Shown here: positions 17,892 to 43,051 of the stretch, in pieces
Layout: each line of letters begins with the position of its first letter
Numbering within the stretch: the stretch's first letter is position 1
From: an uncultured Dokdonia sp.
GTDB taxonomy: Bacteria; Bacteroidota; Bacteroidia; Flavobacteriales; Flavobacteriaceae
Direction of reading: 5' to 3'
Assembly (NCBI RefSeq): GCF_937910895.1
Contig: NZ_CALEMI010000138.1
Location: forward strand, 5,280 to 69,279
DNA: 64,000 bases
The notes under the pieces: model-generated
Database searches by the model: none
What the model saw: only the letters and a program-made list of their open reading frames with translations
Told to the model about the DNA's origin: nothing
Translations under genes and position numbers: made by a program

Positions 17892-20711
17892 TTATGATAT
17901 TATCGCATGAAATGCGTTTTCAGCAAAACTTTTTATTTTTTCATTATCATCATCTAGTGATTTTTCTACAAGTAATAAGTAGGAGTTATCTGCCAATTGC
18001 TCAATTAAAAAAAGTACTGCTAGCTTAAGTTTTAAATCTCTACCTTTTAATATAGTTTCAAAACATTCAAATTCTGTATACCTATTTTTACTTATAGCTG
18101 CAATCACTTCCTCTGACGAGGTATCCAAGATGGTTAACTCTACGATAGGAATTAATCTATTTTTAAGATTAGGGTTTAGTATGATATCTAAAAACTCTAT
18201 AGCGTTGGTTCTCTTTTCTTGACTATCACTTAAAATCCCTTTATACGCTATCTGAATATCTTTTTCAGAATACTTGAGTTCCAAGAGTTTAAATATTCGT
18301 TCTAAACCAGCATCTACTCTACGTTCTAATAGCTCCATTAAACTTTCCCGTGCATTCAGTTCTTTATCAGATATGGATTGCTTACTCTTTTTACGCTTTA
18401 AATAATGCACAATAATCTGTGTATGCATAGAAACAAGAGTTTGATCATAAATCTTACATTCGTCAAGAATGAGTTGTGCTAATTTATTTTTATCAAAATA
18501 CAGTATGGGATTACTCGCTTTGAGTCTTAAAAGCCCCTGGATACATTTTAAACGGATGGTTAAATCGTCAGAAACCATAAAAACATCAAATAAGGTATCT
18601 ACTGCTTTTTGAGATTTAAAAGCTTCTATAACACTAGGGACGTTGCGTTTTATATCTATAGAAATATCTTTTTGATAGATTCTTTGATGAAGCACCGCAA
18701 TCATAGATGGACCGTAATTAACCAAAGCTTCTTGTACTGTTTCTCTGAGTATTTTGTTAGGAAGCAATTGTAATAAATGATTTGTAAAAAAATCATTTAA
18801 GGTATTCCCAGCCGCCTTTATAGCTGTTTTTTGGAGTATTAAATTTGATGAATCCATACCTCTTAGGATATATTCATATCTTTTTTTATAGTCTGCCCAT
18901 CCAATAATAGTAACCAATTCAATAAATTCTTTCTCTTGTTCTGTTTTAGGTAACGCTTCTATTTGGAAAGCTTTTTTTTCTATTCTTTTATAAAGTTCAT
19001 AGCGAGTTCTAAGAAGAGAGTTATCCCTAGATTCTTTGGCTAAGCAAATGAGAGCAGCACCAGATATGTATTCACTAGTGTCATCTAGATAGCTATCAAA
19101 GACAATAGACTCATCCCTATCTGCATGCAATAGTAAATATTCAAGGGCAGCCATGACAACATCATCATCTTTGGTTTTTAGCAAGGCTTGTACTTCAATA
19201 GCGATACTGCCTTCATTAAGATAAAATAAGTTTTGTAAAACTGCAGTTTTCACCACATTGGATGGGTGCTGTAATAAAGCACATATAGGTTCAATGAGTC
19301 TTTTATCATTTACTTCTCGAGCTTTTGTAAGCATAAAAAGAATTTCTTTCTCTTTGCCTTCGCGAAAAACACGTTCCATGCCTTTCAGAAAAGATTCCTT
19401 AGATATCGTTTTTTCTCTCTTTACAGGAATAGGATTGATTTGATCTAAATTTCTTCTGAAGGATAAAAAATACTCTTTCCGTACCTTTAAAATATAATAG
19501 CCCCAAATACAACTGAGCGCTATGATTAATAGCATAATGTAGTTTTCTGAAACATCTAATCCTTTGATTAGAAAAATAAGAATACAACCCGCTATTCCAG
19601 TCGCAATACTATCTACTACAACATCAATAAATGATTTTGTTTTTTTCTTAAGTTGAAAAGGTAATGGCAATGCGATCAGTTCCATTGCAGATTTATGTAC
19701 CGATTGTTTTAGGCTTCCATCTATAGCTTTCAATATAATAATGACCCATAATTCAGGAAAGGATAGAAACAAAAGTCCACCAAAAAAGATAAGAATAGGC
19801 AATAGTAAGAGGGAGAAACCAACACCCCAAATTCCAACAATTTTACGAGTTAAAAATAACTGTAGTGCTAATGAAATCACATTAAAAGTTGATAACCAAA
19901 ACCCAAAAAAAGCGGTTAAATCATCACTATCTGTAATTCTATTAGACGCAATAAAACTAAATTGATAATCTACTAGTTTCGCAATAACAACACCCACGGC
20001 AATAATAATCGCTAAATAGCTGAGGTGCTTTGATTTTCTTATAAGTCGTATTGGATTATCTGTGACGATATCTGTACGTTTTTTTCGTTTAAAACTGTTA
20101 AGTTGAGAAACGCGTACGTTCCAAAGTTTATTCAAAATTGGAAAGCATAATAAGAGTAAAAAAGCTGCTACAAAAATAAGGTTCTCATTTCCTATATATG
20201 GAGCCAGAAGTGATGTGAGATATCCTCCAAAAATACCTCCCATAATAGCACCAGCACCAATAAAACTAAATAATCGTTTTGCCTCTCTAATATTAAAAAC
20301 CAGATTTGCTAATACCCAAAATTGAGAAGTTGCTAGGACCGCATAGATCGCGACTCCTATATAAAATCCGTACAAAATCCATCCTTCAATGAGATTCAAA
20401 TGTAGTAACGTGCCTAATATAAGTAAGGCGATAAGTGAAAATATAAGTGTAAACTTAATAATGGGCAGAAGCGAAAAACGTTCCGTTATTCTTGCATAAA
20501 AATAAGAAGTAATCACTGCTGCAACAGCAACCATTAAATAACCAAACGGAAGATTTTCAACACCTAAGTCTGAAATAAAAAGTGCATTAACCGTAGGTTT
20601 AATAATGAGTAGTGTAGCAATAACCAAAAAAATATAGCCCTGCATTAAGAAAGCTACAGGAAGCTCACCTTCTCTAATGTCAAAAACCTTTTTAATTGTA
20701 TTTTTTAGCAT
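17892..20711 (-). CDS. Npt1/Npt2 (TLC ATP/ADP translocase-like) transporter with HEAT repeats
   Basis: About 12 TM N half with SQFWVLANLVFNIREAKRLF and KKKTKSFIDVVVD; helical-repeat C half. Confidence 0.85.
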   Translation of the reverse strand: MLKNTIKKVFDIREGELPVAFLMQGYIFLVIATLLIIKPTVNALFISDLGVENLPFGYLMVAVAAVITSYFYARITERFSLLPIIKFTLIFSLIALLILGTLLHLNLIEGWILYGFYIGVAIYAVLATSQFWVLANLVFNIREAKRLFSFIGAGAIMGGIFGGYLTSLLAPYIGNENLIFVAAFLLLLCFPILNKLWNVRVSQLNSFKRKKRTDIVTDNPIRLIRKSKHLSYLAIIIAVGVVIAKLVDYQFSFIASNRITDSDDLTAFFGFWLSTFNVISLALQLFLTRKIVGIWGVGFSLLLLPILIFFGGLLFLSFPELWVIIILKAIDGSLKQSVHKSAMELIALPLPFQLKKKTKSFIDVVVDSIATGIAGCILIFLIKGLDVSENYIMLLIIALSCIWGYYILKVRKEYFLSFRRNLDQINPIPVKREKTISKESFLKGMERVFREGKEKEILFMLTKAREVNDKRLIEPICALLQHPSNVVKTAVLQNLFYLNEGSIAIEVQALLKTKDDDVVMAALEYLLLHADRDESIVFDSYLDDTSEYISGAALICLAKESRDNSLLRTRYELYKRIEKKAFQIEALPKTEQEKEFIELVTIIGWADYKKRYEYILRGMDSSNLILQKTAIKAAGNTLNDFFTNHLLQLLPNKILRETVQEALVNYGPSMIAVLHQRIYQKDISIDIKRNVPSVIEAFKSQKAVDTLFDVFMVSDDLTIRLKCIQGLLRLKASNPILYFDKNKLAQLILDECKIYDQTLVSMHTQIIVHYLKRKKSKQSISDKELNARESLMELLERRVDAGLERIFKLLELKYSEKDIQIAYKGILSDSQEKRTNAIEFLDIILNPNLKNRLIPIVELTILDTSSEEVIAAISKNRYTEFECFETILKGRDLKLKLAVLFLIEQLADNSYLLLVEKSLDDDNEKIKSFAENAFHAIIS

Positions 20712-21732: not shown

Positions 21733-22632
21733 TTAAATTATAACTCTTTTCTTGCTTAGAACTTCTTCTATAGGTTGTACAAGATTTCTAATAATCTGTT
21801 CTCCATTACCGTTATCTATCAAAGCAACTAAAATATATCTTCTTGAAGGATTTCCCCATACCAATACAGAATCTGAATGATAGGTACTCCAAGAACCTGA
21901 TTTTCTGAACAAACGTGCATTAGGCGCAATTTTATCCAATGTATTTACAAATTTATGATGTAATGCCGGATCTTCCATAATATCTAGCATTTGTTGTGAA
22001 CGATCTTCTGTTACTAGTTTCCCTTGTGCTAACAAATAGTAAAATCTACATACCTGCGTTACTGTTGCTGCATGGCTTAAATTTTTTAAAGGATCTCTAT
22101 TCACAGCTCCTCCAGAGCCATATCGTTTTCCTACCCATAAACCACCTCCTAACTCCTCATCATAGAGGCTATAGCGATCACTTGTTAAAACAGCTTCTAT
22201 TTTATCATACCCCAAACGATCAATCATTCTCGTTGTAGCTTGATTATTAGATTTACTGATCATTAACTTCATATCATTTTTTATTTCTGAAGTTTCTACA
22301 AGTTCCCCTTTTTCTATAGCATCCATCGCAGCGAGTAATACTGCAATTTTTGGTAAACTAGCCGCATACATCATGTGATTACCATTAACTCGGGCAAATC
22401 GAATATTATTTACATCCGATAAATCAACAACACCTATCGCCATCTTTTTTTGATCAACGAGCTTTTTCCATTTTGGATTGTTACGTACCATACGTGTTAA
22501 ATCCTTCTGAAGAGAAACATCTATAAGCTCTCTTAAAGGCGTGTTATCATTGGGAATAACCACTGGCAAATCTTGCGCATGATTAAGTTGATAAAAAAAG
22601 AATGCAAAAACAAAAACACAAATTTTTTTCAT
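21733..22632 (-). CDS. serine hydrolase, class A beta-lactamase-like fold
   Basis: Signal peptide; SLPK, SNN, KSG. Confidence 0.85.
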   Translation of the reverse strand: MKKICVFVFAFFFYQLNHAQDLPVVIPNDNTPLRELIDVSLQKDLTRMVRNNPKWKKLVDQKKMAIGVVDLSDVNNIRFARVNGNHMMYAASLPKIAVLLAAMDAIEKGELVETSEIKNDMKLMISKSNNQATTRMIDRLGYDKIEAVLTSDRYSLYDEELGGGLWVGKRYGSGGAVNRDPLKNLSHAATVTQVCRFYYLLAQGKLVTEDRSQQMLDIMEDPALHHKFVNTLDKIAPNARLFRKSGSWSTYHSDSVLVWGNPSRRYILVALIDNGNGEQIIRNLVQPIEEVLSKKRVII

Positions 22633-22659
22633 AAATTTTAGGATTAAATAGTATCATAT

Positions 22660-22687
22660 TAAGACCCATACAACAGAAATACGTCAC
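22660..22687 (-). promoter_or_regulatory. putative ECF-sigma promoter, site 5
   Basis: GTGAC-N17-GTCTTA, 28 bp before the 22632 start. Confidence 0.7.
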
Positions 22688-22801
22688 TATTATTATATAA
22701 TTATTTTAAAATATTTTATATAATTATGCTTTTGATTATCAGCATTTTAAATTGATTATTTTATAAATCTACACGAGTATGGTTCTTATGTTGCTACATA
22801 C

Positions 22802-22815
22802 GCTTTCGCGAAAGC
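22802..22815. repeat. palindrome copy 5 (intergenic)
   Basis: Perfect 14-mer. Confidence 0.9.
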
Positions 22816-22922
22816 GGAATTACCCCTACTAAAATTTGAAATATTAAAAAAATAACTCAAACAAATGAATTATTAAAATGAGCTAACATATCTCTAAAAA
22901 AGAAATGTATACTATGTTTATC

Positions 22923-23882
22923 TCACTCTTTTATAAACTGAATGATGTAGGCGATAAGAATACTTACAACGAGACCAATATTTACTTTTGCGAGATCTTT
23001 AATAATTACTTTATACGAATATTTGAGTTGGTCAGATTTTAAAAGATAATTAATCGCGAGTTCACGACCTGCTAAAATGCCTATAAACGTCCAAGTAGTA
23101 CTCATAGGAATTGAACTCAGTGTACCCAAAAAATATAATAAGATTCCATAGATAAAGTCAATAATGGTAGCCGATCGTATGTTGGTTGTATTGGATTTTT
23201 TGGTTACGATATCTTGAATTTTACCTCCTTTATTTTTGAAGATATACATCATAATAAGAAGTATAATCCCTAATGAAACAAGTAATTCTTGAAGTGATAA
23301 AGCTCTAGGTAAAAACACATAAATATTTGCAAAATCTTGGATCAACCACTGAGACCACAAAAAGCCTGTAGAGACCCATTGTGCTACTAACCAATACTTT
23401 TTTTGATCCTTTTTTTCATTTTCAAGACGTTCCAAGCTTCGTTTAGATTCAAATTTTCTAGCGATGATATAGTATATAATAATTGCTGATGTAAAAGCTA
23501 ATGCGTATCCCAATACTGATTTTAAAATCATTTTTTCAATAATAACACTTGAGGAGAATAAGCTCAATATCATAAATGTAGTACTTACAGGAATTCCTAA
23601 TCTCGTAATAATTAATAATGATAATGGCGCTAGTAAATACCACCATTGGAGGTTTTCTGGGAGCGGTATTTTACCGAGTCTTCCGTAGGAAACATCGCCC
23701 CCATTATGATACCAACCATAGAATAATGTTGCTGTAAGAATCGTAGCTGCAAACGCCCAGAGCACCCACCATTTCTTTTTACTATTTGAGGCTAGAAAAG
23801 TCCCTAAGGTTTGTATCACATCATTTGCAATAACAGCATAAGCAGTAATAATAAATCCTAGGTATATAATTATATTGCTCAT
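22923..23882 (-). CDS. membrane transporter with PiT/PHO4-like repeated motifs
   Basis: ANDVIQT..GIPVSTT in the N half, QDFAN..SIPMSTT in the C half; about 9 TM. Confidence 0.65.
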   Translation of the reverse strand: MSNIIIYLGFIITAYAVIANDVIQTLGTFLASNSKKKWWVLWAFAATILTATLFYGWYHNGGDVSYGRLGKIPLPENLQWWYLLAPLSLLIITRLGIPVSTTFMILSLFSSSVIIEKMILKSVLGYALAFTSAIIIYYIIARKFESKRSLERLENEKKDQKKYWLVAQWVSTGFLWSQWLIQDFANIYVFLPRALSLQELLVSLGIILLIMMYIFKNKGGKIQDIVTKKSNTTNIRSATIIDFIYGILLYFLGTLSSIPMSTTWTFIGILAGRELAINYLLKSDQLKYSYKVIIKDLAKVNIGLVVSILIAYIIQFIKE

Positions 23883-24949
23883 TATGATTCTGCTATGGCT
23901 CCTAAGCCAGCTGCTTCACTTGGATATAAAATACCTTTGTCTAATTTGAACAAGCCCTTAAAAGGATCTGCGATCATATCTAAATGACCATCTAGGTCTG
24001 CAAACTTGATGTTTTGTCTTGATAATGCAAAGTGTAAGCCTGCAGAAATTCCTAATCTACACTCATCTATACAGCCTACCATCACCTCTAGTCCCGCAGA
24101 TTGTGCCACAGAGTTAATGTGCATGGCTTCTCGAATACCGCCTACTTTCATAATTTTTATATTGATCATATCAATACGTTCATTTTGAGCCAAGCGGAAA
24201 GTATCTTTTAATGTTTTAATACTTTCGTCTGCCATTACAGGAATATCTGTTCCTTCGGTTACTTGCCCTAAAAGTTCATCCATTCCTTCTTTGGTAGGTT
24301 GTTCAAAAATCTCAATACCTACCTTTTTTGTTCGCTCAAAAAAAGAAATTGCTTCCTTTACGTTGTATCCTTGATTTCCGTCAAAACGTAATTGCGTGCT
24401 TGGGAACATTTCGCGTAAGCGTACCATCTTTTCTACATCTTCATCCAGAGACAGTCCGCCTTTTATTTTTAGAATAAAAAAGCCTTCTTTTACATAGCCT
24501 TGTGCGATACGTAATGTTTCTTCTATAGGCAAAATACCTATCGTAATACTGGTAGGAATGCTATGACGATAACCACCCAAGAACTTATACATAGGTGTTT
24601 CTAGCTTTCTAGCAACAAGATCTAGAAGCGCGATGTCTACCATTGCCAATGCAGAAGATTTCCTTTTTAACAACAACTTCAGGCCTTGCAATATTTCTGA
24701 ACTCATATAGGCATTTCTTCCTTTTAAAAAAGGAATGATAATATCTTTGATATCTTTTTCTACCTCATCTGGCAACTCTCCCGTAACTACTAGATCTGGT
24801 GCCGCACACCCATAGCCCACAAATCCTGTAGCTGTTTCAATTTTAAGAATAAAATTGACTGCCTTATCAATGGTTTCATAAGCAATAGTATACGGATCAG
24901 ATAGTTTTAAATCAAGACGTTCATAAGAGACGTTTGTAATATGCATCAT
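23882..24949 (-). CDS. enolase-superfamily dipeptide epimerase / DgcA-like racemase
   Basis: KIK, FDGNQG, FEQP, MADES, NIKIMKVGG, DLDG motifs. Confidence 0.88.
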   Translation of the reverse strand: MMHITNVSYERLDLKLSDPYTIAYETIDKAVNFILKIETATGFVGYGCAAPDLVVTGELPDEVEKDIKDIIIPFLKGRNAYMSSEILQGLKLLLKRKSSALAMVDIALLDLVARKLETPMYKFLGGYRHSIPTSITIGILPIEETLRIAQGYVKEGFFILKIKGGLSLDEDVEKMVRLREMFPSTQLRFDGNQGYNVKEAISFFERTKKVGIEIFEQPTKEGMDELLGQVTEGTDIPVMADESIKTLKDTFRLAQNERIDMINIKIMKVGGIREAMHINSVAQSAGLEVMVGCIDECRLGISAGLHFALSRQNIKFADLDGHLDMIADPFKGLFKLDKGILYPSEAAGLGAIAES

Positions 24950-26016
24950 AGTTTTGCATCTATTAATTTCACCAATTTATCTGCTCCGTGTGCTAGCACA
25001 TCAAAAGCAGGTAATCCTGTGAGCTCAGTAATAGCTTTACATGCAGGTAAAATCTCTTCTGTTTTCATCCCCTCGTGATTTATGGTAATCGCCATGACCT
25101 TCACTCCCGAAATAGTTTCAATCGCTTGAATTTGCTTTTTTAACGAGTGTAGTTTATAGCCAGGGAAACCATCATATTCTTTACGCATAGGTGCGTGTTG
25201 TAATATCACAAAGTCAGGACGACCCGCAGCAAGAATTTCAAAACCACCTGGATAGGCAGGATTCATTAAACTCCCCTGTCCCTCAATTACAATCACATCT
25301 GGTTCTTCATGTTTGTAGGCACTTACTACGGCATGCTCAATCTCTCCAGACACAAAATCATTAATACAACTATCCATAATCATACTGTATTTTGCACCTT
25401 GCATCCATGCCGTTTGTCCTGTGCCAATCATCTCTGCACGACGACTAATCTTTTCTAAACCTTGCACTATCAGCCAAGCTGTTGTACGTTTCCCAATAGC
25501 AGAATCTGTACCTAAGACAGCCAATTTTAAGCAGTCTACGCTTTCTATATCTCCAGAAAAAAAGTGTAAGGTGTCTCTATCTGGTGTTTTACGAACGTCA
25601 CGAATACGGCAACCATGCTTTTTGGCTAGATCGACTAATGCGTCATCATTTGTTAAAAAATCGTGCAAGCCACTATCTACATTCCATCCTAATGTGAGCG
25701 CTTTCTTTATAGAAACTTTTGCAGTATCAGGTAGTCTTCCACCATCTGGCGCTAAACCTATCACTAGAGATTTTGGCATACTTCCTATCTCTTTTAATTC
25801 TTTGACAGCAACTTCTATACTTTTAAATATGGGAATTCCATTATTTTTTCCATCAAGAACTTTTCCTGCATCTTTTCCTTCATAAGTAGCATCTATCACG
25901 CCTACAATATCGTAACGACCCGTAAAGCGTACAAGTCCGTGTGCTGTTTTTCCGTTAGGAGTATTAAAGGCACCGTCACAATATACTAATGCTTTCCCGT
26001 CTATCTTTTTTTTCAT
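24946..26016 (-). CDS. DUF1611 protein, DgcN-like D-glutamate N-acetyltransferase
   Basis: TPNGKTAHGL, VDSGLHDFL, GTDSAIGKRTT, GTGQT, IEGQGSL motifs. Confidence 0.85.
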   Translation of the reverse strand: MKKKIDGKALVYCDGAFNTPNGKTAHGLVRFTGRYDIVGVIDATYEGKDAGKVLDGKNNGIPIFKSIEVAVKELKEIGSMPKSLVIGLAPDGGRLPDTAKVSIKKALTLGWNVDSGLHDFLTNDDALVDLAKKHGCRIRDVRKTPDRDTLHFFSGDIESVDCLKLAVLGTDSAIGKRTTAWLIVQGLEKISRRAEMIGTGQTAWMQGAKYSMIMDSCINDFVSGEIEHAVVSAYKHEEPDVIVIEGQGSLMNPAYPGGFEILAAGRPDFVILQHAPMRKEYDGFPGYKLHSLKKQIQAIETISGVKVMAITINHEGMKTEEILPACKAITELTGLPAFDVLAHGADKLVKLIDAKL

Positions 26017-26021
26017 GTTGT

Positions 26022-27083
26022 TTAATTTTTTGCTGTTAGGATCGCTACAAAGCGATCTGCTTCAAAGTTGAGTTTTTCATCAAGCTCTAAGAGCCCGATA
26101 AGTCCTGCGGTGGAGGCAGGTAATATTTTAAGCCCCTCTTTTTTAAGGAGGAAGGCTGCCATTTCTTTTAATTTTTTATCACTTACGTGAAAGGCTTCTC
26201 CGTCAGATTCCCGAATGGCGTAAAGTGCGTCGTCCCCATCAAAGCTATGCCAGTTAATGAGTGGCTCATTGTATTTTGTCTCTTTGATATCTTCTGGGTT
26301 AAGGTCTTTACATTTTTTTAATCCTTCCTTAAAAGAGCTTATGATTGGGTTTTTACGTGTAGAAGATGCTGCAATCATTTTAGGAATACGTGAAGTCTTC
26401 CCTCGTTTGTAAAGAGATACAAAACCTCTGTAAACTCCTGCAAATAAAGTTCCATTAGAAACAGGGATGGCACAGTATTTAGGTGCATCTCCAAGATCTT
26501 CTACAATCTCATTTGCTATTTGAGAGTAGGCACTAATTTGCAAAGGCGTATTCGCACCTCCAGGATTGGCATCATACCAGTCATACTCAAAGGCATAGTC
26601 TGTACTTGACTTAACCACATCTTCATAACTTCCTTCTAATCGGATGATCTCTGCTTGAAGTGCTTCCATCTCCTTGATACGTTCTGTATGGTACGATTCA
26701 GGTATGAAAATTTTACACTGTAACCCTGCAAGATTTGCGGCAAGCGCTACAGCCACACCATAATTACCACACGTAGCAAGGGATACAGTATCATAATCTC
26801 TACGCAAGGCATCATATACTTGTGCAAAGGCAATACGGTCTTTTTGAGTTCCTGTTGGGTTATCTCCTTCATACTTAATATATAGTTGGCGGATATCAAA
26901 TTCACGCTCTATGGTTTTAGCACGTGTTAATCCTGTATCCCCCACTTCTATATTAATAATATCTTCAAAACTTTCTAAACGATCATTAAGCGACTTCGTT
27001 TTATCTTTTACAAAATCACTTAATATTCTTGTTTCTGATGATACTTTAATCTCAGCATTCTTTACTCCATCTCGTAATAACAT
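26022..27083 (-). CDS. PLP-dependent fold-type II enzyme, threonine-synthase-like
   Basis: EGDNPTGTQKDR (PLP lysine), TCGNYG, PVSNGT, STAG. Confidence 0.85.
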   Translation of the reverse strand: MLLRDGVKNAEIKVSSETRILSDFVKDKTKSLNDRLESFEDIINIEVGDTGLTRAKTIEREFDIRQLYIKYEGDNPTGTQKDRIAFAQVYDALRRDYDTVSLATCGNYGVAVALAANLAGLQCKIFIPESYHTERIKEMEALQAEIIRLEGSYEDVVKSSTDYAFEYDWYDANPGGANTPLQISAYSQIANEIVEDLGDAPKYCAIPVSNGTLFAGVYRGFVSLYKRGKTSRIPKMIAASSTRKNPIISSFKEGLKKCKDLNPEDIKETKYNEPLINWHSFDGDDALYAIRESDGEAFHVSDKKLKEMAAFLLKKEGLKILPASTAGLIGLLELDEKLNFEADRFVAILTAKN

Positions 27084-27119
27084 AGTGGCATATCGAGATT
27101 ATTAATTCTCTCTTAACAT

Positions 27120-27146
27120 TAAGACACATAAAAAAAAATAGGTCAC
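27120..27146 (-). promoter_or_regulatory. putative ECF-sigma promoter, site 6
   Basis: GTGAC-N16-GTCTTA, 37 bp before the 27083 start. Confidence 0.65.
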
Positions 27147-27460
27147 ATTCATTTTTCTATAAACTCTTTCTAAATTCAATAATGATCATCAGCATGTTTT
27201 ATCTATCTTCTGTCTGCCTTGTAAAAGATACAACGAGAACTTATATATTTTGTAAAACAAGGCTTTACTACTAGAATCCTTACTATCTCCTATGCCTCTT
27301 TTAAAAAGTGTAGACATTATATTGTATAACTTTTACGACTGTAAAAATATCTGTTGTGTATACTGAATTTAAATACCTTTGATATGATAAATCTTTATAT
27401 ATTATACAATGTTATACTTTGTGCAAAAAACTAGGGTACTAATTCTCAAAAACGTTACTG

Positions 27461-29788
27461 TTGATTCATTATATAGAAAAATTTAAAAATGGGTGGCTTT
27501 GGGTAAAGAAAAAACCACTTAGAGCACTTATATATAGCTTACTCACTTTTTTAGCATTGGTGTTGGTATTGTTGTTTAGTATTTATATAGGATTATTTGG
27601 AAAGTTACCCACAAAAGCAGCACTAAAAAAACTTAAGAACCCTGTAACGTCTACCCTATTCGATTCAAAAAATCAAGCCATAGGCTATTATTTCTTACAA
27701 AACCGATCTAATGTAAATAGCAATCAAATTACAGAATTCTTAAAAAATGCCCTTGTTTCTACCGAAGATGTACGTTTTTATGAGCACAAAGGAATTGACT
27801 ACAAAAGCTATGGACGTGTTTTTGTGAAATCTATTTTAATGGGAGAAAACGCTGGAGGTGGTAGTACCATTACACAGCAGGTAGCAAAAAATCTCTTTGG
27901 AAGAAAAAAACAATTTTTTTTAAGTACCCCCATTAATAAGTTTAGAGAAATGTTTATTGCAAGGCGACTTGAATCTGTTTATACCAAAGATGAAATCTTA
28001 CTACTGTATTTTAATACGGTTTCTTTTGGTGAAAATCTGTACGGTATAGAAAAAGCATCTCATCGATTTTTTAATAAGCTCCCAGAAAGTTTATCCTTGG
28101 CAGAAAGTGCTACACTTGTAGGGGTATTAAAAGCCCCTAGTTATTATAGTCCGCGTAACCATCCAGAAAGAGCAGAACGCAGGAGAAATGTTGTTCTATC
28201 ACAAATGGAAAAATATGGCGTTTTAACAGAAGAAGAAAAAAAGAAAGCAAAAATCCCTTTGGTCATCAACTATCAACCCCCTAAAAAAACATCTTCATTT
28301 TCTACCTACTACAAAGATTATGTAGAAACCGAATTTAATGAATGGGCCAAAAATAATCCTGCAGCAGATGGTCATACCTATAATCTTCATAGCGATGGCT
28401 TACAAGTCTACACCACACTCAATAAGTCTATTCAAAACAGTTCTGAGAAAGCATTACAAAGACAGGTAGAAAACTTACAAAAGCTTATGGATACCTATTG
28501 GGCAGCGACTACAACAGAAGGAGGAAAAGAAGCGCTCCTAGATAAACTCGTAGCTGATTTGCCCTCTGTAAAAGTATTAAAATCTAAAGGTACCAGTGAA
28601 GCTGATGTTACTACATTTACTACAACTCCAAAAGAAAGAAAGTTTTGGAAAATTGGTCAAGGGTATGAACCAAGAGTACAATCATTACGAGACTCTATTG
28701 CGACAAGCCTTACAAGATTACACGCTGCCATTATTGCCATAAATAGCAGGTCTGGTGCTATCATGGGTTATGTTGGAGGTATTGATTATGGTTTTAGTCA
28801 GATAGATAATATCACAAACCCAAAACAAGTAGGGTCTACATTTAAACCCATCACCTATTTGGCAGCATTAGAAACAGGAGAAGATCCATGTAAATATTAT
28901 GACAATACTTTACAAACCTACACAAAGTATGAAAATTGGAGACCAAAAAATTCAAATGGTCGCTATGGGGGAAGTTATAGCATGCACGGCGCATTGGCAA
29001 ATTCGGTAAATACCGTATCGGTACAATTACAGTTAAAAGTGGGTGTTGAACGTGTGAAAGTGCAGGCAAAAAAAATGGGGATAACCACCTCATTGCCAAA
29101 TGTCCCTAGTATGGTATTAGGAACTTCATATTTAACACCTCTTGAAATGGTGACGGCTTATGCTAGTATTTCTAATGGAGGGACACGCATAAACCCCTAT
29201 GCCATTGAACGTATAGAAGATGAAAATGGTACAATAATCTATCAACGTAAAACAAAAAATGAAGGCCGAGTAGCAAGTCTTAAAAATATCAAAAACCTTC
29301 AAAAAATGATGGAAGAGGTTATTACAGATGGGACTGCATCAGGAATAAAAGCGTATGACATCAACTTCAATATTATTGGAAAAACGGGTACTACACAAAA
29401 TAATGGTGACGGCTGGTTTATAGGAGCCTCTCCAGAAATTGTGATAGGTGCATGGGTGGGAACCCGAGATAAACGAGTACATTTTGAAAGAACGTATATG
29501 GGCTCTGGTGCAAATACAGCTATGCCTATGGTGGCATCTGTTTTTAAAGGACTTAGTTTATGGAAATCTCCAATACTGACGAATTTTGAATATGATTTTG
29601 ATTATTTTCCTTGTGCATCTTTTTTAGAAATGCCATCACAAGAAGCTACACTATTTACACAAACAGATACTACCTATGTATACCATTTAAAAAGAAAAGA
29701 TTCTATTTTAATAAATAATAAAGCTCCTGTAACAAAAGACTCTATAGTCGTTGATACTGTCTCAAAACCTATACAAATTAATAAGTAA
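27461..29788 (+). CDS. class A penicillin-binding protein (transglycosylase/transpeptidase, PBP1A family)
   Basis: EDVRFYEHKG, GGSTITQQVAKN, STFK, SVN, KTG. Confidence 0.93.
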   Translation: MIHYIEKFKNGWLWVKKKPLRALIYSLLTFLALVLVLLFSIYIGLFGKLPTKAALKKLKNPVTSTLFDSKNQAIGYYFLQNRSNVNSNQITEFLKNALVSTEDVRFYEHKGIDYKSYGRVFVKSILMGENAGGGSTITQQVAKNLFGRKKQFFLSTPINKFREMFIARRLESVYTKDEILLLYFNTVSFGENLYGIEKASHRFFNKLPESLSLAESATLVGVLKAPSYYSPRNHPERAERRRNVVLSQMEKYGVLTEEEKKKAKIPLVINYQPPKKTSSFSTYYKDYVETEFNEWAKNNPAADGHTYNLHSDGLQVYTTLNKSIQNSSEKALQRQVENLQKLMDTYWAATTTEGGKEALLDKLVADLPSVKVLKSKGTSEADVTTFTTTPKERKFWKIGQGYEPRVQSLRDSIATSLTRLHAAIIAINSRSGAIMGYVGGIDYGFSQIDNITNPKQVGSTFKPITYLAALETGEDPCKYYDNTLQTYTKYENWRPKNSNGRYGGSYSMHGALANSVNTVSVQLQLKVGVERVKVQAKKMGITTSLPNVPSMVLGTSYLTPLEMVTAYASISNGGTRINPYAIERIEDENGTIIYQRKTKNEGRVASLKNIKNLQKMMEEVITDGTASGIKAYDINFNIIGKTGTTQNNGDGWFIGASPEIVIGAWVGTRDKRVHFERTYMGSGANTAMPMVASVFKGLSLWKSPILTNFEYDFDYFPCASFLEMPSQEATLFTQTDTTYVYHLKRKDSILINNKAPVTKDSIVVDTVSKPIQINK

Positions 29789-41524: not shown

Positions 41525-43051
41525 TTATTTTTTTCTAAGTTCAAACAAATCTTTTCGTCTATCTCTAAGGTTTTTTACAGCCCCAAACTGATTTAATTCT
41601 CTAAGCAAATCTATATCTACATCTGCGATAAGGATCATTTCTGTATTTGGGGTAGCTTCGGCTTTGATCCCATTTGTTGGAAATGAAAAATCACAAGGTG
41701 TAAAGACCATCGATTGCGCAAACTGAATGTCCATATTTTCTACATTAGGTAGATTACCTACACTTCCTGCAATGGCAACGTAGCATTCATTTTCTATAGC
41801 TCTTGCTTGAGAACAATGACGCACACGAGAATATCCGTTTTGAGTGTCGGTTAAGAAGGGAACAAATAAGATATCCATTCCTTCGTCTGCAAGTAATCTG
41901 CTTAGTTCTGGAAATTCAGAATCATAGCAAATAAGAACACCTATTTTACCACAGTCTGTGTCAAATGCTTTGATCTGACTTCCTCCCTGCATTCCCCATA
42001 CTTTTGCTTCATCTGGTGTTACATGTAGTTTTTCATATCGATCTACACTACCATCTCGACGACATAAATAGCCTACATTATATAAGCGACCATCTTTCAT
42101 TTCTGGCATACTCCCTGAAATAATATTGATGTTATAGGAGATTGAGAATTCTGAAAATTTCTGTACGATTGCTGCCGTATGTTTTGCTAGTTCTCTAATA
42201 GCGTCTGGTGTACTTAAATGGTTGTCTTTTGCCATTAAGGGTGCATTGAAGAACTCTGGAAACAAGACAAAGTCTGATCGATATCCAGCGACAGCATCTA
42301 TAAAGTACTCAGCTTGATTCAATAATTCATCTAAATCCTTATAGGGACGCATCTGCCATTGTATCAACCCAAGACGAACATTTTTTTTCTTTGTCGCTGC
42401 TTTTTTACTCGGCTTCTTGTAGTAGATATTATCCCATTCCATTAATATCGCAAAATCACCTGAGTCTCTATCACCTTCTAAGTAGCCATTCATCACTCTA
42501 GTAGGATGAAAATCATTAGATATTTGGAAGTTTAATACGGGATCATTAATTTCTTTACGCTTTACTTTTTCTATATATTCTTTAGGTGAAATATTTTCTG
42601 AATATTTGCTATAATTAGGCATTCTTCCTCCAAAAGCAATTCCCTTTAAGTTCAATTTTTCACATACTTCTTTGCGATAATCATAAAGTCTTCTTCCTAA
42701 ACGCAATCCTCTAAACTCAGGTTTGATAAATACATCAACGCCATATAGAACGTCACCATCATTTGTATGCGTGTTAAAAGAGTAGTTACCTGTAATGTCT
42801 ACATAGGTATGATTTTCTTTAAAATCATCATAATTTACAATAATAGACAACGCACAACCAGCTAGCTGTCCGTTAATTTTTATGACTACTTGTCCTTCTG
42901 GAAATTTATGAATAAGCGATTTTATGTGATGTTCTTTCCAATACGAATCTGGCATATTTGTATATGCAGAAATCATTGTAGTTTTAAGCTCTTGATAATC
43001 ATCTAAATCAAGAAATTTTAATTCGATATTTTCTATATCTTTTGTTTTCAT
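41525..43051 (-). CDS. bifunctional GNAT acetyltransferase / carbon-nitrogen hydrolase
   Basis: GNAT FRGLRLGRRLY; nitrilase triad FPEF, YEKLH, ICYD; TATCTTTG -7 box at 43065-43072. Confidence 0.9.
   Translation of the reverse strand: MKTKDIENIELKFLDLDDYQELKTTMISAYTNMPDSYWKEHHIKSLIHKFPEGQVVIKINGQLAGCALSIIVNYDDFKENHTYVDITGNYSFNTHTNDGDVLYGVDVFIKPEFRGLRLGRRLYDYRKEVCEKLNLKGIAFGGRMPNYSKYSENISPKEYIEKVKRKEINDPVLNFQISNDFHPTRVMNGYLEGDRDSGDFAILMEWDNIYYKKPSKKAATKKKNVRLGLIQWQMRPYKDLDELLNQAEYFIDAVAGYRSDFVLFPEFFNAPLMAKDNHLSTPDAIRELAKHTAAIVQKFSEFSISYNINIISGSMPEMKDGRLYNVGYLCRRDGSVDRYEKLHVTPDEAKVWGMQGGSQIKAFDTDCGKIGVLICYDSEFPELSRLLADEGMDILFVPFLTDTQNGYSRVRHCSQARAIENECYVAIAGSVGNLPNVENMDIQFAQSMVFTPCDFSFPTNGIKAEATPNTEMILIADVDIDLLRELNQFGAVKNLRDRRKDLFELRKK

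Follow-up and report, generated by a model that had tools for sequence, protein, structure and literature searches.

What does a compact run of four genes in an uncultured Dokdonia sp. encode, and do the four genes belong together? The window analysed here, a stretch of 64,000 nucleotides from this member of the Flavobacteriaceae (NCBI RefSeq assembly GCF_937910895.1, contig NZ_CALEMI010000138.1), carries between 22923 and 27083 genes for a pyridoxal phosphate (PLP) enzyme, a DUF1611 protein, an enolase-superfamily epimerase and a PiT-like membrane protein. A first-pass annotation read all four as a Bacteroidota variant of the DgcN/DgcA D-glutamate module, with the PLP enzyme and the PiT-like protein as additional partners. 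Our results showed that the conserved unit is PLP enzyme, DUF1611 protein and epimerase, three genes rather than four. Judging from their sequences, we lean towards viewing this trio as a self-contained and uncharacterised module for the stereo-inversion of amino acids.

A conserved cassette of three genes

All four genes lie on the minus strand. The first encodes a ThrC-like fold-type-II PLP enzyme of the PRK06381/NF004996 family (26022-27083; 353 aa), the second the DUF1611 protein, with a Rossmann-like N-terminal and a P-loop C-terminal domain (24946-26016; 356 aa), and the third an enolase-superfamily enzyme of the MLE subgroup that resembles dipeptide epimerases (23882-24949; 355 aa). The compact PiT-superfamily membrane protein (22923-23882; 319 aa) is a lineage-specific neighbour of this trio. 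The tight packing of four co-directional reading frames described in the first-pass annotation is borne out: the first two genes are 5 nt apart, the second and third overlap by 4 nt (ATGA) and the third and fourth by 1 nt (TAATG), the PiT-like gene thus overlapping the stop codon of the epimerase gene. Because of these junctions, co-transcription of the four genes is very likely in this genome.

To see which of these genes travel together, we compared a family sample of 151 genomes, one per genus, and a wider family sample of 401 genomes. High-identity DUF1611 orthologues were present in 14 of the 151 genomes, and PLP orthologues in exactly the same 14, which makes the PLP enzyme an obligate third member. 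The order PLP-DUF1611-epimerase was kept at 12/12 loci (11 fetched plus the window), while the flanks of these loci vary between genera and have almost nothing in common; even in a genome of the same genus, the trio sits in a wholly different neighbourhood. Since the order of the trio is constant while its flanks differ, it appears to be a self-contained unit whose genes move together. In the wider sample, 31 of 401 genomes (about 8% of the sampled Flavobacteriaceae) carry a PLP orthologue. It is also found in five other Bacteroidota families (18/351 genomes of a phylum-level sample), and 11 of the 12 loci fetched from that sample contain all three genes, the PLP gene being oppositely oriented in two of them; at the remaining locus the epimerase was not in the stretch fetched. 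Co-occurrence thus supports the joint conservation of PLP enzyme, DUF1611 protein and epimerase, but it leaves the PiT-like gene outside, and the idea of a single conserved four-gene unit does not hold.

Altogether 31 cassette loci were compared; they come from three overlapping sampling routes and from related genomes, and counts over them are descriptive, not statistical. At 11 of the 31, a PP-loop protein and a creatininase-family hydrolase are inserted between DUF1611 and the epimerase. The PP-loop protein of these five-gene loci has 507 aa and an SSGGKDS motif. At three loci from other Bacteroidota families the two are fused into a protein of about 783 aa (L106:4450-6801, L107:10157-12511 and L108:4653-7061). 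The separate PP-loop protein gave no match in Pfam, and the fused PP-loop part none in Pfam or NCBIfam. Neither the PP-loop nor the creatininase gene of the cassette was found anywhere in the genome of the window, which carries the minimal three-gene form.

A DUF1611/epimerase pair apart from DgcN and DgcA

In the sea, D-amino acids represent a large reservoir of refractory organic nitrogen. A DgcN-DgcA pathway for D-glutamate was reportedly described by Yu et al. in 2023 (ISME J 17:537), and the question is how closely the cassette resembles it. The DUF1611 protein, single copy in its genome, matches PF17396 (DUF1611_N) with 84 bits and PF07755 (DUF1611) with 207 bits, and so has the architecture of DgcN, DUF1611_N followed by a P-loop DUF1611 domain with GTDxxxGK. 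Its P-loop reads GTDSAIGKRTT; the GTDxxxGK loop is invariant in 19 orthologues and aligns with that of 7XRJ. The top PDB matches are 2G0T and 2OBN, with 7XRJ at 101 bits. Against the DgcN model NF041892 (D-Glu N-acetyltransferase), the protein reaches 150.7 bits, where the cut-off is 480. The epimerase likewise stays at 140.8 bits against NF042940 (DgcA, N-acetyl-D-Glu racemase; cut-off 400). In general type the pair, DUF1611 with an enolase-type enzyme, resembles DgcN/DgcA, but neither protein is an equivalog, and the DgcN/DgcA label fails.

A literature search on DUF1611 returned incidental mentions only. According to the NCBIfam name and to GapMind 2026, DUF1611 members are N-acyltransferases with varied substrates; GapMind 2026 refers to DgcN as an acetyltransferase of D-glutamate, and for a distant homologue its prediction is N-succinyl-L-glutamate synthase (PMC13759103). 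A metagenomic survey uses dgcN as a marker of D-Glu turnover in the ocean and counts Bacteroidia among its carriers (PMC12363236).

The epimerase (Pfam MR_MLE_N and MR_MLE_C) has YkfB of B. subtilis as its best PDB match (1JPM/1TKK, 219 bits), followed by 3RIT (199) and 3JVA (198). Its K161/K163, D190, E216, D241, K265 and D318/D320 align with YkfB K160/K162, D191, E219, D244, K268 and D321/D323. In YkfB, K160/K162 and K268 serve as acid/base, the metal is held by D191, E219 and D244 and the alpha-ammonium group by D321 and D323, and Arg24 of the capping loop holds the side-chain carboxylate of Glu (10.1101/2022.05.01.490185). K161, K163, D190, D241, K265, D318 and D320 are invariant in 19/19 epimerase orthologues, and E216 lies within an invariant fEQP motif. 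With the dipeptide epimerases (YkfB/YcjG, 3RIT, 3JVA, 2ZAD and 3Q45), the enzyme therefore shares the KxK motif, the D/E/D ligands, the second Lys and the DxD motif.

The difference lies in the specificity pocket. The position of YkfB Arg24 is occupied by Glu25, which is invariant in 19/19 orthologues and belongs to an invariant PYTIAYET loop; three aligned loci from other Bacteroidota families read PYTIAYET or PYSIAYEK. As the Glu-binding Arg24 is replaced by an invariant Glu25, D-Glu is an unlikely substrate, and so a D-glutamate role of the enzyme appears unlikely from these alignments. Glu25 and Asp295 in the pocket rather suggest that the side chain is basic, or in any case not acidic. 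Asp295 is shared with 3RIT only, and we take 3RIT to be a cationic-dipeptide enzyme. To our knowledge, DUF1611 and PLP partners are not among the characterised genomic contexts of dipeptide epimerases.

These comparisons also bear on peptidoglycan-peptide recycling, in which the enzyme would be an ordinary L-Ala-D/L-Glu epimerase acting on murein dipeptides and its neighbours would be accessory or unrelated. YkfB is the top PDB match, the top NCBIfam match is an L-Ala-D/L-Glu epimerase model, and genes for PBP1A and for a class-A beta-lactamase/DD-peptidase-like protein lie nearby. However, both Ala-Glu equivalog scores are under their cut-offs (NF041118, 236.5 vs 500; NF011708, 82.5 vs 343), Arg24 is replaced by Glu, the adjacency of PBP1A is not conserved among the other cassette loci, and the cassette comes without a murein peptide amidase or dipeptidase. 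We consider this explanation highly improbable.

Is there a better counterpart of DgcN/DgcA in the same family? Among the sampled Flavobacteriaceae we found three DUF1611 subfamilies, each beside an enzyme that inverts C-alpha. The third (L047:5897-8032, also L048-L050), seen in small-genome Flavobacteriaceae, is preceded by a DgcA-like epimerase at 4/4 loci. This pair scores 237 and 179 bits against the DgcN and DgcA models, above the pair of the window and still under the cut-offs, and its epimerase has Arg in the capping loop. The second subfamily (L042:6998-9811, also L043-L046) is 42-44% identical to the DUF1611 protein of the window. At 5/5 loci it is followed by an ornithine-racemase-like (Orr) PLP enzyme of the alanine-racemase fold, with a score of 388 bits (cut-off 480), and at 3/5 by a VanX-like D-Ala-D-Ala dipeptidase homologue; going by these sequences, it would be another uncharacterised D-amino-acid module. 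DUF1611 thus seems consistently wired to C-alpha-inverting enzymes, and the sequence comparison places the pair of the window on a branch apart from the D-Glu one.

With this in hand, the original proposal can be weighed, namely a Bacteroidota DgcN/DgcA module for D-glutamate catabolism with the PLP enzyme and an amino-acid-importing PiT-like carrier as partners. DUF1611 and an enolase racemase are indeed the components of DgcN/DgcA, and both NCBIfam models match below threshold; the PiT-like gene shares an overlap with the stop codon of the epimerase gene and is adjacent in several genera, and the listing of Bacteroidia as dgcN carriers (PMC12363236) agrees with it. Set against this are scores far under the equivalog cut-offs, the capping-loop Glu instead of the Glu-binding Arg in every orthologue, the separate pair of the same family that is closer to DgcN/DgcA and has the Arg, and a PiT-like gene found in only 3 of 30 other cassette genomes. 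The proposal is very unlikely in our view, and D-glutamate as the substrate is not supported.

Compared with DgcN-DgcA, our trio shares the pairing of a two-domain DUF1611 protein bearing the GTDxxxGK loop with an MLE-subgroup racemase/epimerase and, by analogy, likely the same logic, an N-substitution that enables inversion at C-alpha. It differs in its obligatory ThrC-like PLP enzyme, in its Bacteroidota host as opposed to Proteobacteria or haloarchaea, in the Glu of the capping loop and in the optional PP-loop and creatininase pair at about one third of the loci.

The PLP enzyme and a proposed pathway

The PLP enzyme matches PF00291 (PALP) with 188.7 bits and scores 422 bits against NF004996/PRK06381 (cut-off 266), a family that bears the name 'threonine synthase'; a search of the ESM Atlas gave 'threonine synthase family' and nothing further. 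It shares with ThrC the fold-type-II PLP fold and the PLP lysine, and matches ThrC structures with about 90 bits. In the alignment to T. thermophilus ThrC, its PLP-Lys81 falls on K61. Thr88 and Arg160 of that enzyme bind the phosphate of the substrate, O-phosphohomoserine. In the PLP enzyme the Thr88 position is Tyr108, no basic residue is aligned with Arg160, and the position of Thr85 in the substrate loop is an invariant Cys105. The three non-standard motifs listed in the first-pass annotation, TQKDR, TCGNYG and PVSNG, can be found in the protein and do not vary across 18 orthologues.

A housekeeping threonine synthase was considered and rejected: the enzyme stays below the thrC model TIGR00260 (95.4 bits vs cut-off 167.1), a canonical thrC (281 bits) is found elsewhere in the genome on contig C37, and the phosphate-site residues are not kept. 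A cysteate synthase of the CapA type was also rejected (40 bits against a cut-off of 600). The simplest reading of the altered phosphate site is that the substrate would be non-phosphorylated.

We infer the catalytic steps, the substrate and the pathway's direction as follows. The DUF1611 protein, by analogy with the chemistry reported for its relative DgcN, would add an acyl or aminoacyl group to the alpha-amino group of an amino acid. The epimerase would then invert C-alpha of this N-substituted, dipeptide-like intermediate by means of its two lysines and Mg2+. Either ahead of these two steps or following them, the PLP enzyme may act on the amino acid in its free form and so feed or drain the pathway; its reaction would be a beta/gamma elimination, a replacement or one of the racemase type, and its substrate would lack a phosphate ester. 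The substrate of the cassette would be non-acidic, possibly basic and probably not glutamate, and the direction may be either salvage or detoxification of D-amino acids or the synthesis of a D-containing small molecule. An undescribed pathway in which a basic or otherwise non-acidic amino acid, or such a dipeptide, is stereo-inverted or tailored is, on the sequence features above, quite possible as the role of the trio, and slightly less to be relied on than the module itself.

A rival reading is a biosynthetic role. Here, the PLP enzyme would make a non-proteinogenic amino acid by beta/gamma replacement, the DUF1611 protein would couple it, the epimerase would set a D-centre and a neighbouring protein would export the product, a dipeptide-like or N-acyl compound such as an osmolyte, a signal or a siderophore precursor. 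Non-orthologous membrane proteins are encoded co-directionally beside the cassette, PiT-like in the window and at 6 other loci, EamA at L032 and MscS at L040 and L041; in the five-gene forms there is also a PP-loop enzyme that uses ATP (creatininase-fused at L106-L108), which is typical of building rather than degrading, and the DUF1611 P-loop resembles that of dethiobiotin synthetase. However, no transporter adjoins most of the cassette loci, and the characterised relative, DgcN/DgcA, is catabolic. Biosynthesis as the purpose of the cassette is unlikely.

Several points weigh against the stereo-inversion module that we favour. The idea of a basic substrate hangs on one loop residue and on the cationic-dipeptide specificity of 3RIT. 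An argument that the DxD motif proves a dipeptide substrate had to be rejected: DgcA-like epimerases keep DxD too, and the motif therefore does not discriminate a dipeptide from an N-acetyl substrate. The likeness of the DUF1611 P-loop to dethiobiotin synthetase could indicate an ATP-dependent ligation instead of acyl-CoA transfer. As 11 of the 31 loci add the PP-loop ATPase and the creatininase, the three-gene form may be incomplete or may differ in role. Finally, the PRK06381 family scored above its cut-off in 0 of 14 model organisms.

If the proposal is right, the PRK06381 PLP family and a new DUF1611 subfamily would each receive a first function, and many 'dgcN' calls in Bacteroidota metagenomes would be mis-assigned. 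Since the three DUF1611 subfamilies sit beside different inverting enzymes and none reaches the DgcN cut-off, dgcN counts may merge several pathways. Being frequent, compact and absent from model organisms, the trio offers a clean target for two orphan enzyme families. One species with an orthologue is Zobellia galactanivorans. New in the present analysis are the minimal three-gene form without PP-loop and creatininase genes, the invariant Arg-to-Glu switch, a tested account of the PiT-like neighbour and the picture of three DUF1611 subfamilies in one bacterial family.

The PiT-like gene and other neighbours

What, then, is the fourth gene? Its product reaches 22.3 bits against PF01384 (PHO4), under the gathering cut-off of 33.7. 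Its AlphaFold model (pLDDT 82.4) has a single significant Foldseek match, 6L85 (prob 1.00, TMq 0.58), a Na/phosphate transporter of Thermotoga, and bears out the PiT-fold identity given in the first-pass annotation. The protein has a duplicated, invariant [N/Q]D signature, each copy about 77 residues before a PxSTT motif (ND...PVSTT and QD..N...PMSTT); the invariant residues are N20, D21, P98, S100 and T101 in the first copy and D183, N186, P259, S261 and T262 in the second. On the strength of model and alignment, we regard it as a true compact member of the PiT superfamily. It shares with PHO4 proteins and 6L85 the fold and the duplicated Asp-containing signature with PxSTT, but is about 100 residues shorter and carries the signature as ANDVIQT and QDFANI.

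The PiT-like gene is present in 29 of the 401 genomes of the wider family sample. It is missing from 27 of the 30 other cassette genomes in that sample and adjacent to the cassette in 0/30. A scan of species-representative genomes gave 45 PiT-like loci. At seven of them a cassette lies upstream of the gene and in the same orientation, immediately so at five and 1.5-3 kb off at L066 and L083. These seven are from Kordia, a Maribacter metagenome-assembled genome, two Aquimarina, Flagellimonas nanhaiensis, Patiriisocius and an uncultured flavobacterium. In Patiriisocius (L081:8088-8949), the PiT-like gene is apparently disrupted, with short open reading frames and a late-starting tblastn match. 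The other 38 of the 45 loci are without a cassette and include Algoriphagus, Saprospiraceae, Competibacteraceae and Chlorobiales. An earlier impression from the 151-genome sample, that the PiT-like gene is unique to this genome, was revised in view of the seven further adjacent cases.

In a tree, the copy of the window and the six intact cassette-adjacent copies fall into one 10-member subclade (support 84/91). This placement fits one origin of the juxtaposition followed by losses. L061, which belongs to this lineage, lacks the cassette but keeps the PiT-like gene in a syntenic block with a beta-lactamase-like and a HEAT-MFS gene. In our reading, the PiT-like gene is a passenger or accessory restricted to one lineage and not a core component, so that its place in the module, as first annotated, has to be given up; with 38 of 45 PiT-like loci cassette-free and no adjacency in the 30 cassette genomes, its distribution also speaks against the D-glutamate module with a PiT-like importer. 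That it nevertheless serves the cassette within this lineage is rather doubtful. If it does, one flavobacterial sub-lineage may have taken on this compact carrier of the PiT fold to move the substrate or a co-product.

Upstream of the PLP gene, a divergent PBP1A gene (27461-29788) lies across a 377-bp spacer (27084-27460), as the first-pass annotation had it. We rejected PBP1A as a functional partner; no other locus has it adjacent, and only L066 and L083 have it at a distance. The spacer is the presumed promoter region and holds one sigma-70-like match at 27345-27316. The specific promoter claimed there was not confirmed: sigma-70-like matches at the locus were not commoner than in shuffled sequence, and no Bacteroidota-type TAnnTTTG was found on the minus strand of the 377 bp. 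At the other end, an AT-rich spacer of 290 bp past the PiT-like gene (22633-22922) is the likely end of the operon. About 110 nt beyond the PiT-like stop codon, a perfect 8+8 palindrome, CGCTTTCG/CGAAAGCG (22800-22815), can be read directly from the sequence; it was not called in the terminator scan because no T-run follows it.

Other genes recur near the cassette. The window encodes a GNAT::carbon-nitrogen-hydrolase fusion protein of 508 aa (41528-43051, minus strand). At 4/31 loci (three families) an orthologue stands no more than a few kb from the cassette, and at a fifth it is about 7 kb away; in the 151-genome sample, orthologues occur in 13 of the 14 cassette genomes vs 58 of the 137 others. 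The fusion may be an accessory deacylase/acyltransferase, or the pattern may merely reflect shared ancestry. A secreted Met-zincin of 854 aa (DUF5117, DUF5118, DUF4953) stands beside the cassette at 6/31 loci (L033:9137-11701, also L035, L037 and L111-L113), convergent with the epimerase gene at the two intact loci, L033 and L035; this proximity is probably synteny among Zobellia-like genera.

Beyond the AT-rich spacer, the window encodes a secreted class-A beta-lactamase/DD-peptidase-like protein with a signal peptide and SLPK, SNN and KSG motifs (21733-22632, minus strand), and further on a 939-aa MFS/TLC-like transporter with HEAT repeats (17892-20711, minus strand). The block of the beta-lactamase-like and HEAT-MFS genes is syntenic with the cassette at 7-8 of the 31 loci, whether the PiT-like gene is present or not.

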